The translations under genes were made by a program, and so were the position numbers. Below, piece by piece: positions 2,112 to 24,564 of a DNA stretch of 64,000 nt; position 1 is the stretch's first letter; every line of letters starts with the position of its first letter. The notes under the pieces were generated by a model that did not search any database, was not told the origin of the DNA, and saw only the letters and a list, made by a program, of their open reading frames with translations. Origin of the DNA: an uncultured Candidatus Saccharibacteria bacterium (GTDB taxonomy: Bacteria; Patescibacteriota; Saccharimonadia; Saccharimonadales; UBA10212); contig OZ246413.1 in the NCBI GenBank assembly GCA_965231085.1, positions 539,234 to 603,233 of the forward strand, read 5' to 3'.

Positions 2112-2189
2112 GGTGCCTGTAGCTCAGCTGGTTAGAGCGTCGGGTTGTGGTTCCGAAGGCCGTGGGTTCGATCCCCATCAGGCACCCCA
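2112..2189 (+). tRNA. tRNA-His (GTG), encoded G-1 and CCA
   Basis: Cloverleaf parsed by eye: G-1 + GTGCCTG acceptor, GCTC/GAGC D stem, anticodon arm TCGGG-TTGTGGT-TCCGA (anticodon GTG), T arm GTGGG-TTCGATC-CCCAT, CAGGCAC-C-CCA. Confidence 0.9.
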
Positions 2190-2204
2190 AGTTTAAATTT
2201 ATAA

Positions 2205-2735
2205 ATGATCAGAAGCATTAACCCTTTTTCGTGGAACCTAAATAAAAAAGCTCAGCGCACTCATGCTGAGCATAATGCCTTTGTATTACAAACAGTTCAG
2301 CCCGGTCTAGCCGGGTTAATGGATGGTTCTGTATCTACCCTTGCCCCAATTTTTGCTGCTGCTTTTGCCACCAGCAATCCTCATATTACTTTTTTAGTTG
2401 GTGTATCAGCCGCTGTTGGTGCCGCTATTAGCATGGCTTTTGCCGAAGCTCTAAGCGATGATGGTAAGCTCACTGGTCGGGGAGCACCCTTCCGGAGAGG
2501 GGTAATTATTGGTTGTATGACTTTCCTCGGTGGTATTTTTCATACCCTGCCATTTTTAATGCCCAGTCTTCATTCGGCACTAACGCTAGCCTATCTGGTG
2601 GTGGGCCTTGAGCTAATAGCCATCGCTTATATTCGCTACCATTATTTTGACATGAAATTTTGGTTATCAGTTCTTCAGGTAATAGTTGGCGGCGGCCTTG
2701 TATTCGCCGCTGGTATATTAATCGGTGCTTCTTAG
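2205..2735 (+). CDS. VIT1/CCC1-family membrane protein (Fe/Mn transporter-like)
   Basis: [20 protein letters not shown] and [10 protein letters not shown] motifs plus C-terminal TM helices are typical of the VIT family. Confidence 0.7.
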
Positions 2736-3406
2736 TAAATAAACTTCAAGGCCGTAATAACGGCGGCTGATACTACGATATTATCTAGTCCGCGAATACT
2801 CAGATTCTCAAGAACGCTTAGTGCTGGTGGCAATACCAAGAGAATTAATCCATATGTCAGTAAGTTTGGCTGTAGAACGCATAGTAATCCAAAGCCAAGT
2901 ATTAAGAACGAACTTATCCAAAAAGCCATGGTTCCAATAACCGAGCGGGTCTCGCCAAAAATTTTATAGCGCCATCGTTTTCCGTATGCCTGACCAATTA
3001 TTGCTGCCATGCCATCAGCGATTGCCAAATGAAGCACCGCGATCATGAAGAAATATTTATTGTTCGTAAGTAGCGCCGATATGGTAATAGCTAAGGCGAA
3101 AAATAGATCTCCATATGTTTGGCGATTTATGCGCCACGATATTTTAAAAACTCTAACTTCCCTATCTATTAAAACCGTTACGGCCATGGCTAAGCCTATC
3201 AGCTGTATTGTGTGCCAACTAATAAGCCAAGGCCAAAAAGCCGCAAAAATACCAACCGACATATGAATAAACTTTCGATAATACTCGTATCTCAAGACCT
3301 TTTTTCGCCAGAATAATTCACCGACAACCAAGATGATAAAAACGCCGAACAGACAGGTTAATACAGAAAGCATATCCTTAATTCTATACCAATTTGCTAC
3401 AATCAA
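2732..3406 (-). CDS. CTP-dependent polyprenol (dolichol/phytol) kinase / CdsA-family membrane protein
   Basis: Polytopic. [38 protein letters not shown] matches the GDxxAxxxGxxxGK...S/T.xG motif of the cytidylyltransferase/dolichol-kinase family. Confidence 0.55.
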
Positions 3407-4224
3407 TCTATCATATGGCCGCCGAAGAACTTATTTATCATGCTAGAAAAACATCCATTAGCGCCCTTGGTGTTATAAAGCAAAGCTTTTGGGTTATCGG
3501 GCAGCACCCTCAACTATTGCTTTATCCCTACCTTGCTCTAATGTTTGTACTTATAACCTACCCAATAATTAGTGCTAGTTTTATAGCTCATTGGTACGAC
3601 AAAATATTTACCGAGGCGGGCTCGCTAGCCCCCCACCATCTCGGAATTGTTCTTGGGATTGTTGGGTTTTCGGTTTTTTATACCGCCTTTATCTCCGCCT
3701 ATTTTACTACCGCTGTATCGGCAGCCGTATTGGCAACGTTGGAAGGCCGAGAACCGTCAAAGTTGTATGGAATACGCCAGGTCTTTAAACACTTTGGTCG
3801 AGTTACAAAGTTTGGTGTCCTGTCGCTGTTCTTTTTCCCGATGGGTGTATACGCCCAACGCCGCAAACTCCCACGCGGAATGGCTGGGGTCATTGGCAGC
3901 TCTCTGACACTCCACATGGCTCAGATTGCGCCTAGTATTTTAGAGGGCCATCAAAGGTATGGAGCAACTATCAGGGCCGCTGTAGATAAGCTTGGCAAAA
4001 CCTGGAAAGAAGGTCTGGCGCTAAAGATTGGTATGTATATTACAATTTTTATATTTTTTGTAGCTCCAAAATTAGTACAGCATCACTGGTATAAGAGCCA
4101 AACGGCCAGCAACATTGGGTGGCTTCTGAGCCTAGAGCTTGGTGCTTCCGGTATCGTATTCTTTAAAGTGATAAACGCTATTTTCACGACCGTGCTTTAC
4201 CATAAAGCAACAGAAAAGGAATAA
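3394..4224 (+). CDS. Hypothetical polytopic membrane protein
   Basis: 276-aa ORF with several hydrophobic segments, followed by a terminator at 4230-4253. Confidence 0.6.
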   Translation: MLQSIYHMAAEELIYHARKTSISALGVIKQSFWVIGQHPQLLLYPYLALMFVLITYPIISASFIAHWYDKIFTEAGSLAPHHLGIVLGIVGFSVFYTAFISAYFTTAVSAAVLATLEGREPSKLYGIRQVFKHFGRVTKFGVLSLFFFPMGVYAQRRKLPRGMAGVIGSSLTLHMAQIAPSILEGHQRYGATIRAAVDKLGKTWKEGLALKIGMYITIFIFFVAPKLVQHHWYKSQTASNIGWLLSLELGASGIVFFKVINAIFTTVLYHKATEKE

Positions 4225-4229
4225 AAAAT

Positions 4230-4253
4230 GACTCCAAGAATGGAGTCGTTTTT
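4230..4253 (+). terminator. Rho-independent (bidirectional) terminator
   Basis: GACTCCA-agaa-TGGAGTC followed by gttttt, preceded by an A-run. Confidence 0.75.
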
Positions 4254-4276
4254 AATGGTCGGGGATAGAGGACTCG
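4249..4276 (-). repeat. Displaced copy of the tRNA-Pro 3' end (28 nt direct repeat of 4418-4445)
   Basis: tttttaatggtcggggatagaggactcg is identical at 4249-4276 and 4418-4445. It covers the downstream flank, CCA, the acceptor 3' strand and half of the T arm. Confidence 0.9.
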
Positions 4277-4417
4277 CGTTATCGTTCGCCAGCACAAACT
4301 GCAAGCAGTGTGCATGGCGGACAAGCAAGGAAAACTCAAACAGCCATCAGGCTGTTTTCGCCTATCGGTTCGAGTCCTAGCCCAATAATTAAAAATAGAC
4401 CGTCAAAAGACGGTCAA
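4277..4417. other. 141-bp structured insert between the tRNA-Pro 3' fragment and intact tRNA-Pro
   Basis: Long hairpin CGCCAGCACA...TGTGCaTGGCG (4287-4319). Hairpin CAGCC-atca-GGCTG plus tttt (4341-4358). Inverted T-arm-like cgagtcctagccc (4371-4383) pairs with aggactcg (4269-4276). Ends in its own terminator. Confidence 0.5.
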
Positions 4418-4422
4418 TTTTT
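4391..4422 (-). terminator. Rho-independent terminator downstream of tRNA-Pro
   Basis: GACCGTC-aaaa-GACGGTC (4398-4415) flanked by an A-run and a T-run. Confidence 0.75.
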
Positions 4423-4424
4423 AA

Positions 4425-4501
4425 TGGTCGGGGATAGAGGACTCGAACCTCCGACCTCGCGGTCCCAAACCGCGCGCGCTAGCCAACTGCGCCAATCCCC
4501 G
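4425..4501 (-). tRNA. tRNA-Pro (TGG), CCA encoded
   Basis: The reverse complement parses as CGGGGAT-TG-GCGC..GCGC-G-CGCGG-TTTGGGA-CCGCG-AGGTC-GGAGG-TTCGAGT-CCTCT-ATCCCCG-A-CCA. Confidence 0.9.
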
Positions 4502-4548
4502 AGAATTGTCAGGGGTAATTATAGCAAAATATACCTCTGTTGGCGAGG

Positions 4549-4986
4549 TTAAATATCTAGATTATTCTCTTTGCTTAAAATCGCCCTAAGGTCTACCGTT
4601 GTCTGGCGCGTACTAACGGCATGTATTGTGCGCAGGCCTAGCTTGGCTGCTGAGCCTAAGTTTTCTGACAAATTATCTATAAAAAGTATTTCTTCCGGTT
4701 TTACCCCAAGGCGCTCTATAGTTCGTTTGTATATTGTTGGATTAGGTTTTCTAACTCCTTCTTCATAACTTAATATGATCGGCTTGAATCCAGCCTTTAT
4801 ATGAAGCCACTTTAAAATTATGCCGGGGAATACAGCTACATTCGACAGAATGGCTGGCTGGATACCTGCCTTACTAAGTTCTCTAGCTATTCGGTACAGT
4901 TTAAATTGCGGGCCAGAAAAACGAATCAGAACATTGCCGATGTCAAACAAAACTACCCTGATCATTTTCGTTTTCTCCCAATCCAA
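4549..4986 (-). CDS. HAD-superfamily hydrolase (subfamily IA-like)
   Basis: N-terminal VVLFDIGNVL (motif I variant) and KPNPTIYKRTIERLGVKPEEILFIDNLSENL (motifs III/IV). Confidence 0.65.
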   Translation of the reverse strand: MDWEKTKMIRVVLFDIGNVLIRFSGPQFKLYRIARELSKAGIQPAILSNVAVFPGIILKWLHIKAGFKPIILSYEEGVRKPNPTIYKRTIERLGVKPEEILFIDNLSENLGSAAKLGLRTIHAVSTRQTTVDLRAILSKENNLDI

Positions 4987-22392: not shown

Positions 22393-22671
22393 ATGTACAA
22401 AGTATTTGTAGGTGGTTTGCCTTTTGCAACAACTGACGATGAGCTTCGCGATGCTTTCGCTGCTCATGGTCAAGTTGCTAGCGCTGTAGTAGTTCGCGAC
22501 CGCGAAACTGGCCGCAGCAAAGGCTTCGGATTCGTAGAATTCGAAAATGACGACGAAGGCCGTGCAGCTGAAAAAGCTCTTAACGGTTCTGAGCTCGGTG
22601 GACGCACAATTTCTGTTGCTGAAGCCCGCCCTAAAGAAGATCGTCCACGTGATGATCGCCCTCGTTACTAA
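22393..22671 (+). CDS. RRM-type RNA-binding protein
   Basis: RNP2 KVFVGGL and RNP1 KGFGFVEF motifs, with an R/D/P-rich tail. Confidence 0.9.
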   Translation: MYKVFVGGLPFATTDDELRDAFAAHGQVASAVVVRDRETGRSKGFGFVEFENDDEGRAAEKALNGSELGGRTISVAEARPKEDRPRDDRPRY

Positions 22672-22700
22672 ACCTTAAAAGTTTAGAATCGATAAGAAAA

Positions 22701-22728
22701 CTCCCTGCAACTTAACAGGGAGTTTTTT
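22701..22728 (+). terminator. Rho-independent terminator of the RRM gene
   Basis: CTCCCTG-caacttaa-CAGGGAG followed by tttttt. Confidence 0.8.
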
Positions 22729-22729
22729 G

Positions 22730-22748
22730 TTGGTAGCGGGAGTAGGAC
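22730..22748 (-). repeat. Displaced copy of the tRNA-fMet 3' end (19-nt direct repeat of 22900-22918)
   Basis: ttggtagcgggagtaggac is identical at both sites (CCA, acceptor 3' strand and T-stem 3' strand). Confidence 0.9.
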
Positions 22749-22899
22749 AACGCACGTCTGCGCTCGTTCTCGAAACCAGTTTCTGCGAGCGAGCTTGACG
22801 ACCGATCCTACGACTGTCGCCAGCATAGCTGTCGAGTCGTAGAACCGAGCCTAGTTCACGGCCAAGAAAAATACCCGTCCGAAAGGACGGGCACTTTTC
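22749..22899. other. 151-bp GC-richer structured insert between the tRNA-fMet 3' fragment and intact tRNA-fMet
   Basis: Hairpins CGCTCG...CGAGCG (22761-22790) and CTACGACT...AGTCGTAG (22808-22842). tcctac (22806-22811) pairs with gtagga (22742-22747). Ends in terminator CCCGTCC-gaaa-GGACGGG (22874-22891). Confidence 0.5.
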
Positions 22900-22900
22900 T

Positions 22901-22975
22901 TGGTAGCGGGAGTAGGACTCGAACCTACGACCTCGTGGTTATGAGCCACGCGAGCTGCCACTGCTCCATCCCGCG
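22901..22975 (-). tRNA. Initiator tRNA-fMet (CAT), CCA encoded
   Basis: CGCGGGA-TG-GAGC-AGTGGCA-GCTC-G-CGTGG-CTCATAA-CCACG-AGGTC-GTAGG-TTCGAGT-CCTAC-TCCCGCT-A-CCA. C1xU72 mismatch and an initiator-type D arm. Two of the three initiator G-C pairs are present in the anticodon stem. Confidence 0.8.
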
Positions 22976-23018
22976 TCATATTACCAGTGCCTAATTTTAA
23001 TCTTTTAAGGAGTTAATG

Positions 23019-23474
23019 TCAATCGCTAACTATTTTTCGGCCTAACAAAAAATCGCGCCAAGCTTGCATATTCATAGTGTATTTTGATTTTGACTGAGAG
23101 TTAGTTTTTGTTTGGACGGCCGCGGCCACATCCTGGTTAACATATTTTGCAGCAATTGCATTCGGCACTAATATAACCTTTTCGCCGGGGCCGGCTAGAC
23201 CCAACGATTGGCGGGCAGCCAGATCAAGATACTGGCCGGTGTCATAATATTTGTTTTGGAGTTTTGTATTATCGTTTTGCAGCCGCAAAACTTCGTTTTG
23301 TTGGCTTAATACTGCGATCTTTTTTTGCAGCTCATAATTATCCTGAATGGTTTTTACACCGCTCCAGGCTATAGCTAGAACCATCATAGTAAAAAGGTAG
23401 CTCGGGATATTTTTGGTATCAGTAATCTGCTTGAAATTTTTGCTACTAATAAATTGTCGGGCGCGATAAAGCAT
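23019..23474 (-). CDS. FtsB/DivIC-like septum formation initiator
   Basis: Single TM followed by a leucine-zipper-like coiled coil (LQKKIAVLSQQNEVLRLQNDNTKLQNKY). Confidence 0.5.
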   Translation of the reverse strand: MLYRARQFISSKNFKQITDTKNIPSYLFTMMVLAIAWSGVKTIQDNYELQKKIAVLSQQNEVLRLQNDNTKLQNKYYDTGQYLDLAARQSLGLAGPGEKVILVPNAIAAKYVNQDVAAAVQTKTNSQSKSKYTMNMQAWRDFLLGRKIVSD

Positions 23475-23499
23475 TAGTACATTATAACTCGGAAATAGC

Positions 23500-23575
23500 T
23501 GGTGGGGGTGCCTGGACTTGAACCAGGGACCAATCGGTTATGAGCCGACTGCTCTAACCACTGAGCTACACCCCC
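23500..23575 (-). tRNA. tRNA with CAT anticodon, probably tRNA-Ile2 (lysidine-modified)
   Basis: GGGGGTG-TA-GCTCAGTGGTTAGAGC-A-GTCGG-CTCATAA-CCGAT-TGGTC-CCTGG-TTCAAGT-CCAGG-CACCCCC-A-CCA. The D arm, variable loop and T arm resemble E. coli ileX as I recall it. tilS is present in the window. Confidence 0.7.
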
Positions 23576-23634
23576 TTGTCCAGCTAGCACAGGAACTCAG
23601 TATCAAAACCAGTATAACAGATACGGATTAATTT

Positions 23635-24564
23635 TTACTGGTCTAAAAGTTCTAGAGCTTCCTCGGGAGAATGAGTCTCCATAAATTCTGCTCTTAGGTC
23701 TGCGGCTCCGTCAAAGCCGTTTATATAAGCTTTGCAAAATTTTCGCAGTAGCTCGAACTTTCTCTCACCATCTTTATAAGTATCGAGGTGCAACTTTATA
23801 TGTTTTTTGAATAGATCTATTTTTTGCTCCTTAGTAAGTGCCGCCCAGGGGCTACTGGCAGAGAATATATACGGATCGTGAAAAATACCACGCCCAATCA
23901 TAATGCCATCTAAGTTGTATTCTTTAGCTAGTTCCAGGCCTTGAGACCTGGTCGCAACGTCTCCGTTACCAACAATCAAAGTTTCCGGAGATAATTTGTC
24001 GCGCAAGCGAACAACTTCACCAATCAGATCCCAATCAGCCGGGACTTTGGACATTTGCTTGGCGGTTCTGCCATGAATAGTTAACATGTTAAGTTTTTTG
24101 CTTAAAAGAAATTCAATCCAGGCCATATCTACCGTCCCGAATCCAAGTCTCGTTTTAACAGAAACAGGAAAGTTCTCGCCTACACCTTCTCGCACGGCAT
24201 CGATAATCTGCCCGGCTAACTCCTGGTTATTAATAAGTGCCGCACAGGCGCCGTTCTTTATAACTGTTCTGACTGGGCAGCCCATGTTTATATCCACTCC
24301 AGCAAATCCCATTTTTTTAAGTTCATGAGCTGTTTTTTTATAATTTTCTGGGTTGAGTCCCCAAATTTGTGCAATTACTGGCTTTTCTTTGTCGGTTAGC
24401 TTGAGCTTGTGCATCAATTTCGGCCGACCTGGGCTTTGCAGCCCGTCGACATTGACGAATTCCGTAAACATTAAGTCTGGTTTGGCACAGTCAGCTACGA
24501 TTTGTCGAAAGACTGAATCAGTAACATCATCCATCGGAGCCAGAACAAAAAACGGCTTTGTCAT
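23635..24564 (-). CDS. dus: tRNA-dihydrouridine synthase
   Basis: FVLAPMDDVTDSVFR, DINMGCP, HGRT motifs. Confidence 0.9.
   Translation of the reverse strand: MTKPFFVLAPMDDVTDSVFRQIVADCAKPDLMFTEFVNVDGLQSPGRPKLMHKLKLTDKEKPVIAQIWGLNPENYKKTAHELKKMGFAGVDINMGCPVRTVIKNGACAALINNQELAGQIIDAVREGVGENFPVSVKTRLGFGTVDMAWIEFLLSKKLNMLTIHGRTAKQMSKVPADWDLIGEVVRLRDKLSPETLIVGNGDVATRSQGLELAKEYNLDGIMIGRGIFHDPYIFSASSPWAALTKEQKIDLFKKHIKLHLDTYKDGERKFELLRKFCKAYINGFDGAADLRAEFMETHSPEEALELLDQ

Follow-up and report, generated by a model that had tools for sequence, protein, structure and literature searches.

A probable RtT-like tRNA-trailer RNA module behind tRNA-Pro in Saccharibacteria

The RtT repeats that lie behind the tyrT gene of Escherichia coli have been known since about 1978. 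There the tyrT operon is followed by repeats of 178 base pairs (bp), each of which carries the last 19 nucleotides (nt) of the transfer RNA (tRNA) for tyrosine, and the repeats yield a product termed rtT RNA. Boesl and Kersten are said to have described, in 1991, the release of this RNA from the tRNA operon transcript. A unit of similar plan is described here from an uncultured Candidatus Saccharibacteria bacterium. It lies in a 64,000 nt stretch of contig OZ246413.1, which was analysed as a whole and is referred to as the window; all coordinates without a locus name are window positions. The unit consists of a 141 bp insert and a repeated tRNA tail directly behind a tRNA-Pro gene. It is read, with a probability of roughly 60%, as an RtT-like tRNA-trailer RNA module whose arms are re-matched to each tRNA that it follows.

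Four RtT units are found at tyrT/tyrV of E. coli K-12, and these score 133-138 bits with the Rfam model RF00391 (positive control). Each ends in AATCCTTCCCCCACCACCA, the tail of tRNA-Tyr. The Rfam consensus has a closing helix, GgGaaGGAU/AUCCuuCcC, and a free tail, ccaCCACCA; its 5′ part reads GGAUGAGAAcC and is followed by a small hairpin. At the proK locus the order is tRNA-Pro(CGG), a terminator, an RtT-like unit with Pro-matched arms, the terminator again and a partial second unit. This last unit is interrupted by a repetitive extragenic palindromic (REP) element at L156 (NC_000913.3, 3707600-3709200), and the locus is also represented by L155. The proK unit is unannotated in the K-12 RefSeq entry and is labelled 'RtT sRNA' in strain CKJ_1000_3.1. 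Copies of RtT number from 1 to 14 per E. coli genome. In one account, rtT RNA is 171 nt long and is released by processing of the tRNA operon transcript; it is tied there to tyrT transcript processing and possibly to the stringent response, and its mode of action is given as unknown (10.1101/2024.07.17.603846).

The tRNA-Pro(UGG) gene of the window (4425-4501, minus strand) is intact, has an encoded CCA and is the source of the copied 3′ end; it is called by ARAGORN and by the Rfam tRNA model at 63.4 bits. A 28-mer, TTTTTAATGGTCGGGGATAGAGGACTCG, occurs exactly twice on the minus strand, at 4418-4445 and 4249-4276, with 100% identity and 141 bp between the copies. The first copy comprises 21 nt of the tRNA end (4425-4445) and 7 nt of its 3′ flank (4418-4424). 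Read on the tRNA strand, the repeat thus runs from C56 to A76, CCA included, and on into the flank. A chance repeat was ruled out, as none of 100 dinucleotide-preserving shuffles gave a match, even at 3 mismatches. An earlier sequence-only reading of this DNA had reported the repeat and the 141 bp that it encloses, and its coordinates were exact.

The likeness of the window unit to those of E. coli is one of plan. In both, the unit lies directly 3′ of a tRNA gene on the same strand, has a period of about 170-180 nt and carries an exact copy of the tRNA 3′ end including CCA (19 nt at tyrT/tyrV and proK; 21 nt plus the 7 flanking nt in the window). A 5′ segment (GGAUGAGAACC...) that is antisense to the 3′ strand of the T-arm pairs with the tail copy and leaves the distal acceptor strand and the CCA free; this GGAUGAGAACC variant is also present in units L012 and L105. 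Next to the 5′ arm comes a small hairpin, a second copy of the tRNA terminator stands behind the unit (at proK in E. coli), and arms are re-matched to each tRNA (Tyr versus Pro in E. coli). The E. coli units are tandem and vary in copy number; the window unit is single, and tandems are found in relatives (L069, L127 and L112). The two systems differ in core sequence and helices, and in host phylum, which here is Saccharibacteria of the candidate phyla radiation. Unlike RtT, the Saccharibacteria modules have at least three core classes, stand behind more than a dozen tRNA types and transfer-messenger RNA (tmRNA), and for the most part occur singly, flanked on both sides by hairpin terminators.

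Anatomy and folding of the module

The full-length module spans 4256-4389 on the minus strand, belongs to a group termed class A, and matches the covariance model of the family at 133.4 bits (E = 8e-34, model positions 1-136). Directly 3′ of the tRNA stands a terminator-like hairpin, T1 (4398-4415, minus strand), which a terminator scan calls on both strands. T1 forms the tip of a long imperfect inverted repeat (4367-4449) that sets the 3′ end of the tRNA opposite the 5′ arm of the module. The tRNA tail, T1 and the 5′ arm thereby form one long imperfect palindrome, and this accounts for a spurious mir-3145 Rfam hit and for the two inverted repeats detected. In most family members the base of T1 consists of CCA and an A-rich run paired with a T-rich run and TGG.

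The 5′ arm, GGGCUAGGACUCG (4371-4383, minus strand), is the 5′ strand of helix P1, as seen from the inverted repeat, the fold and P1 covariation. It is antisense to the T-loop, the 3′ strand of the T-stem and the start of the acceptor strand of tRNA-Pro. A mini-hairpin follows, P2, with the form CC-GAUA-GG (4361-4368, minus strand), which was recognized from the alignment and the consensus fold and which is CCC-loop-GGG in members whose T-stem begins with CCC. Hairpin P3, AAACAGCC-UGAU-GGCUGUUU (4338-4357, minus strand), is nearly invariant across the family and is followed by a U-rich stretch; 100% of the alignment cells of P3 are paired, and variants are G-U only. The single-stranded stretch GAGUUUUCCUUGCUUG (4322-4337, minus strand) has invariant alignment columns that served as a scan pattern, and the invariant single strand of the family between P3 and P4 reads GAGUUUUCCUUGCUUGG. 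Hairpin P4 (4287-4319, minus strand) varies among members in sequence and length, and a linker similar to (A)GAAUAAC joins it to the 3′ arm. The 3′ arm, CGAGUCCUCUAUCCCCGACCA (4256-4276, minus strand), is an exact 21 nt copy of tRNA-Pro positions 56-76. Its first part is the 3′ strand of P1, and the remaining acceptor nucleotides and ACCA are largely unpaired. A second terminator-like hairpin, T2 (4230-4247), with a T-run closes the module (4223-4247 in all, minus strand, by terminator scan). Each of the two terminator-like hairpins begins with TTAAAAA, and T2 is 65% similar to T1.

Pairing of the two arms in P1 closes the RNA into a three-way structure, from which a tRNA-like tail ending in ACCA protrudes unpaired. 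Most of these parts had been picked out in the sequence-only reading: the long hairpin at 4287-4319, a second hairpin with a T-run (P3, here 4338-4357), the inverted T-arm segment at 4371-4383 that pairs with 4256-4276, and the terminator at 4398-4415 all reappear. It had also predicted a minus-strand RNA of about 130 nt with an acceptor-like helix ending in ACCA. A structure with pairing ends is upheld by conservation and covariation, but the helix is not acceptor-like, since the terminal helix is T-loop and T-stem sequence and most of the acceptor 3′ strand and the ACCA are free. The promoter that had been proposed for this RNA (TTGACC-18-TTTAAT) is not called by a consensus scan and is not conserved in relatives.

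The 134 nt minus-strand RNA folds at -54 kcal/mol, with z = -5.1 relative to shuffles, and the 200 nt stretch that includes both terminators has z = -8.8. A structure alignment was built from 19 members, with 10 tRNA types and four helices. In this alignment 92.9% of the helix cells are paired, versus 36-44% after the partners are slid by 1-3 columns. Double-sided changes occur in nine pairs, and the observed values were reached by none of 500 shuffles. P4 has changes on both sides in five of its six modelled pairs, and at least 14 G-U cells agree with the tRNA-sense strand. The single-stranded motif is invariant in 19 of the 19 aligned members, a count that is partly circular, as the motif was used to find most of them. 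When the covariance model was run over 1.03 Mb of Saccharibacteria DNA, it returned four class A copies at 92-133 bits; the window copy belonged to the seed of the model, and the three others score 92-95 bits. Folding and a covariance search had been put forward as checks in the sequence-only reading, and both speak for a structured element.

Other structures were considered for the same sequence. An alternative 9 bp helix, GAUAGGCGA/UUGCUUGUC, which appears in the single-sequence fold, finds no support in the alignment: the consensus reads GG in place of the GU of the window copy, and L100 and L094 carry changes that do not compensate one another. A hammerhead ribozyme was rejected, as CUGAUG is found in the P3 loop of the window copy only and the loop is unconserved. 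The ends of the RNA, GGGCUA...ACCA, prompted a comparison with tmRNA and permuted tmRNA, which was likewise rejected: there is no ARAGORN call, no T-arm and no tag frame. Rfam 15 at E <= 10 gave only tRNA and noise over the locus, with no RtT, tmRNA, Y RNA or ribozyme, and at E <= 1 gave only tRNA and noise over two other units. The module shares with the tRNA-like domain of tmRNA, the Y RNA YrlA and viral tRNA-like structures a T-arm-derived helix, an acceptor strand and an NCCA end. It differs from these in lacking a cloverleaf or L-shape, a 5′ acceptor strand and any analogue of the D-loop. The module is recognized neither by ARAGORN nor by the Rfam models for tRNA, tmRNA and YrlA; the real tRNA-Pro is the only call.

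Family members, matched arms and turnover

BLAST and nhmmer searches with the 141 bp sequence gave matches in three other genomes, each directly 3′ of a tRNA and on the tRNA strand; the genes concerned are tRNA-Pro(UGG) at L067, tRNA-Pro(CGG) at L071 and tRNA-Arg(UCU) at L012. A test independent of the core looked for second copies of the last 13-14 nt of each of 204 tRNAs. It gave 22 extra copies, all of them downstream on the same strand, and 0 upstream or on the opposite strand. The end-to-end period is 159-186 nt in 21 of the 22; the remaining copy (L088) lies 1383 nt downstream. By their bodies, these modules can be divided into three or more core classes, termed A, B and C. Class A is represented among the tail-copy loci by the window locus, L067, L071 and L012, and L012 has an additional, divergent class A unit that was overlooked by the exact-tail test. 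In units of classes B and C an antisense segment comes first, and behind it stands a sense copy of the 3′ third of the tRNA whose T-loop holds a large insertion. The class A covariance model gives weak full-length matches to class B in the 1.03 Mb set (E = 0.002-0.006), so that a distant relationship between A and B is probable.

When metagenomes were scanned with GGCTGTTTAAGTTTTCCTT, the 19-mer that is invariant in class A, 52 loci came up, of which about 33 are true class A and the others chance coding hits. The coincidental matches in coding sequence (...EEGCLSFP...) involve marine viral contigs, and L083-L087, L091, L102, L103 and L135 are listed among them. With the covariance model and pattern scans, the core is found behind tRNAs with 13 or more different anticodons, which represent 10 amino-acid identities, and behind a tmRNA gene. 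The genes upstream of class A, as assigned by ARAGORN and Rfam, include tRNA-Pro (UGG, CGG, GGG), Arg (UCU, CCU), Leu (UAA, UAG), Gly(GCC), Lys(UUU), Ser(CGA), Met(CAU) and Tyr(GUA), as well as the tmRNA of L096. In L096 (826-1450) a class A module stands behind a tmRNA gene that is missed by ARAGORN and scores 94 bits with the Rfam tmRNA model (826-1222). Its 3′ arm is a copy of the tmRNA tail, ...GTACCCACCAGCTCCACCA, and L121 and L106 are similar. The L121 contig, which has a class A module of this tmRNA-tail type, also carries a LOOT RNA at 92-204 (Rfam RF03000, 79.9 bits).

Hosts are Saccharibacteria where checked, and most metagenome contigs carry no taxon. The named relatives of the ComEC protein encoded beside the Lys-linked copy are all labelled Saccharibacteria, and host genes are common to several metagenome loci and Saccharibacteria loci. 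Between genomes whose RNase Y is just 78% identical, the core is conserved to the same degree as the tRNA. A few rearranged copies have no same-strand tRNA upstream. A full-text literature search found these modules undescribed in Saccharibacteria or the candidate phyla radiation. The RtT-like tRNA-trailer modules represent a new, widespread multi-class family of Saccharibacteria that is absent from Rfam 15. A lack of conservation of the insert among relatives had been named beforehand as one of several findings that together would speak against a discrete element; the insert is conserved in other genomes.

The arms usually, if not in every case, follow the local tRNA. Of the 25 class A units linked to a tRNA, about 12 carry as their 3′ arm an exact 21-22 nt copy of the adjoining tRNA from T-loop to CCA, to which the 5′ arm is antisense. 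Cores behind different tRNAs are 92-97% identical with arms that are unrelated: the Arg-CCU and Met-CAU units have 97% identity in the core and 58% in the 3′ arm, and the corresponding values for the Lys and Met units are 93% and 32%. L094 is a chimera, with a 5′ arm that carries the unusual T-loop of the upstream tRNA-Gly and a 3′ arm from another tRNA. In three units (L092, L104 and L134) the core is intact although T1 has been lost together with the 5′ arm. Tandem arrangements consist of two identical 184 nt units in L069, class A and then class C in L127, and another class followed by class A in L112.

L110 bears on how the match is kept. Its 3′ arm is identical to the tRNA at 22 of 22 positions, whereas the copies of the duplicated terminator are 74% identical, with compensatory changes in the stem. 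At uniform divergence such an outcome has a probability of about 0.001. It follows that the L110 tail copy has been kept identical by selection or conversion, and the pattern indicates constraint or conversion rather than the scar of a recent crossover. In the favoured interpretation of the module, too, the 3′ arm owes its identity with the tRNA to selection or to gene conversion. Re-matching of the arms has three candidate routes: crossover in the T-loop by a recombinase supplied in trans, template switching at the T1/P1 quasi-palindrome, and hairpin-based single-strand recombination.

Turnover is seen when related genomes are compared, as the sequence-only reading had suggested doing. L003, which is among the closest relatives (RNase Y 86% identical), has tRNA-Pro, one terminator and the end of the same convergent gene, which constitutes a syntenic empty site; some 50 other tRNA-Pro(UGG) loci also have no module. 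In L088 (6990-8391), 1.2 kb of foreign DNA stands between the tRNA and a class A module, with open reading frames of 238 and 75 amino acids that have no Pfam match. At the site of the intact tRNA-Pro of L100, L131 (1-700), otherwise 98% identical, has unrelated DNA whose junction lies at ...CCCCGACCA. L110 and L158 have an identical tRNA-Lys(UUU) and ComEC proteins that are 91% identical. Between these genes L110 has T1, a class A module and T2, L158 has an open reading frame of 268 codons and L157 has one of 205 codons. No tail repeat is present at this tRNA-Lys/ComEC locus in L158 or L157; the module is replaced there by unrelated open reading frames, and a clean empty site was not found. 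From these insertions and replacements, the tRNA 3′ flanks of these genomes are hot spots at which the module is often gained or lost.

Readings of the module

The interpretation as an RtT-like tRNA-trailer RNA with re-matched arms draws on what is directly observed: architecture, conservation of the core, covariation in P4 and P1, a fixed strand and distance relative to the tRNA, matching of the arms, and turnover between relatives. By analogy with E. coli rtT RNA, the module would be transcribed in the direction of the tRNA, either together with it or just behind it, and probably by read-through of T1 from the tRNA promoter. The enzymes of tRNA 3′ maturation might then free it by cutting at the true tail and at the copied tail, and the released product would bear a tRNA-like 3′ end. 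A protein or RNA partner would most likely bind at the invariant single strand and P3.

A number of observations weigh against this interpretation. RF00391, with a gathering threshold of 45 bits, has no match on 3900-4900 at E <= 10, and none on 22600-23700, around a second module of the window, at E <= 1. Homology of class A with E. coli RtT was rejected, as the class A covariance model gives just 4.5-6.1 bits, which is not significant. Because the two models fail crosswise, the link to RtT rests on architecture; the window element, which has no detectable sequence homology to RtT, would thus be RtT-like in its working and is not a member of RF00391. No promoter of the module's own is conserved across the family, and read-through would be limited by T1, which has the look of a competent terminator. 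The remaining tRNA-linked class A units have arms that are diverged, mismatched (those of another tRNA) or lost. The covariation of P1 could be a by-product of both arms having been copied from a self-complementary T-arm, an objection from which the covariation of P4 is free. The patchy distribution, the direct repeats and the larger insertions at tRNA tails (L088, L131) also fit a mobile element acting at the DNA level.

Mobility of this kind is the likeliest of the alternatives and is considered rather unlikely. A miniature integrative cassette of about 170 bp, made up of tail copy, T1, antisense arm and core, would have been recombined into the T-loop-to-CCA segment of tRNA and tmRNA genes by a recombinase encoded elsewhere, with the 28 nt repeats as attL and attR and any RNA as secondary. 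As at att sites, a direct repeat of the tRNA 3′ segment that begins in the T-loop and is exact brackets an insert, the tRNA remains intact, relatives such as L003 have an empty site, insertions are stacked behind the tRNA, and tmRNA is used as well. Williams reportedly identified the T-loop, in 2002, as a classic crossover sublocation of tRNA-targeting integrases. Also in accord are the presence of different classes at the same orthologous tRNA-Pro site, tandem and mixed arrays, foreign DNA at the same tRNA tails upstream of the module (1.2 kb in L088; L131 versus L100), and replacement of the region behind tRNA-Lys between close relatives. However, all-against-all BLAST of the open reading frames within 4 kb of 37 copies revealed no integrase, transposase or conserved gene, only host synteny genes, and exact-pattern scans of IMG/VR viral contigs with class A and B cores gave only coding coincidences (e.g. 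a deformylase-like EEGCLSFP). Unlike the cargo of an att-bounded element, the 141 bp is a conserved structured RNA that contains an antisense copy of the tail, and identical cores occur at many tRNA types. With near-identical cores and wholly different arms, a carried attP would have to yield dead, chimeric tRNAs again and again. It offers no explanation for the antisense arm or for the covariation in P4, and in L110 the tail copy is perfect though the co-duplicated terminator has diverged. E. coli RtT units are not known to be mobilised by an integrase. The sequence-only reading had favored an att-like scar or miniature element: a discrete element that is not due to chance is indeed present, but a classic attL/attR pair is not its best description, given the missing integrase and IMG/VR copies and a core that sits at many tRNAs with re-matched arms. 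A larger related integrated element, which that reading had looked to, is not found with this core in IMG/VR, and the 1.2 kb of L088 has unannotated open reading frames. Its description was accurate save for the promoter and its miniature element idea was half right; the RtT repeat was not considered. Integron attC sites and CTX-phage attP offer a formal resemblance in architecture only: short units with imperfect inverted repeats fold into hairpins and so mimic a target site, and arrays gather at one fixed site. The repeat of the module is a tRNA tail, not GTTRRRY or a dif core. The module also differs from repeats derived from miniature inverted-repeat transposable elements and insertion sequences, in that its arms vary with the neighbouring tRNA and its sites are tRNA and tmRNA 3′ flanks in nearly every copy.

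A by-product of replication or repair is distinctly improbable. Here a partial duplication of the tRNA 3′ end and terminator, extended by template switching at the terminator palindrome, would have left selfish or neutral DNA with no role as RNA. The long imperfect palindrome of tRNA tail, T1 and 5′ arm would suit such an origin, as would duplication of the terminator along with the tail, the sense tRNA copies from the anticodon or variable loop onward in class B and C units, and the range of 1 to 14 copies per genome in E. coli. It accords poorly with a core that is shared by different tRNA types and is as conserved as the tRNA between genomes with 78% RNase Y identity, with a P4 hairpin preserved through double substitutions, and with a single-stranded motif that is invariant in 19 of 19 members, partly circular as this count is. 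L092, L104 and L134 have an intact core yet no T1 or 5′ arm. A product of the plus strand, either an antisense RNA or a 50-codon open reading frame at 4228-4380, is very improbable. The plus strand folds equally well (z = -9.6), the T1 and T2 hairpins are symmetrical, and an ATG-initiated frame of 50 amino acids is listed; but orientation to the tRNA is fixed in every copy and the tRNA-sense G-U pairs would turn into A-C mismatches. Further, no reading frame is conserved, given that modules vary in length (123-140 nt) by amounts not divisible by three and that each tRNA brings other arms.

An extension of the RtT-like RNA interpretation has been hypothesized and is regarded as unlikely: RtT-like modules of both phyla might be self-retargeting cassettes whose arms are rewritten from the upstream tRNA or tmRNA and whose RNA acts on the biology of tRNA 3′ ends. 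Rewriting might rely on template switching, with the terminator palindrome as its route, or on single-strand recombination of hairpins, and an RNA with the tail of the local tRNA might serve, for example, as decoy or sensor where enzymes or factors recognize the T-arm and the CCA end. Were this so, E. coli rtT RNA would at last have a mechanism. The same plan in unrelated sequence, in a distant phylum of reduced genomes, suggests a recurrent selected design and not an oddity of E. coli. One core with different arms also amounts to a natural experiment, through which the purpose of the tRNA-like tail and the rewriting of arms might be tested. In addition, the partial-tRNA repeats of these modules can be mistaken for prophage att scars.

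A second module and the surroundings of the locus

Further copies had been sought in view of the sequence-only reading, and in addition to those in other genomes one more is present in the window. This second module, of class C, stands behind tRNA-Met(CAU) (22901-22975), and its body and 3′ arm occupy 22731-22866 on the minus strand. A T1 hairpin lies at about 22867-22900; the 3′ arm ends in TCCTACTCCCGCTACCA, the tail of tRNA-Met, and is followed by another terminator hairpin. Relatives are found at L043, L076, L127, L079, L042 and L020. The single-sequence fold of this module is unexceptional (z = -0.9).

On one side of the tRNA-Pro locus are genes for RNase Y, a CYTH protein and a HAD hydrolase, and on the other are two membrane proteins with no Pfam hits, a VIT1 protein and tRNA-His. 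A convergent gene of 269 amino acids (3415-4224) has its end facing T2. In a collection of species-representative genomes, the best 80 relatives of RNase Y are almost all labelled Saccharibacteria or Saccharimonadales, and many of these 80 keep the neighbourhood of RNase Y and tRNA-Pro(UGG). In most relatives a tRNA-Pro(CGG) gene is situated between tRNA-Pro(UGG) and tRNA-His (window 2113-4501 compared with L003-L082). The window has none in that interval, nor elsewhere in its 64 kb.

Modules of this kind break short-read assemblies at tRNA genes, and Logan contigs provide an example at this locus. The contigs of SRR14271372, which stem from the same organism (end of L001 and end of L002; window position about 4450), break within the T-arm/acceptor region of tRNA-Pro, where one contig stops and the other starts at the same point. 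The break may reflect another tRNA-Pro with the same 3′ half, or population variants at the site.

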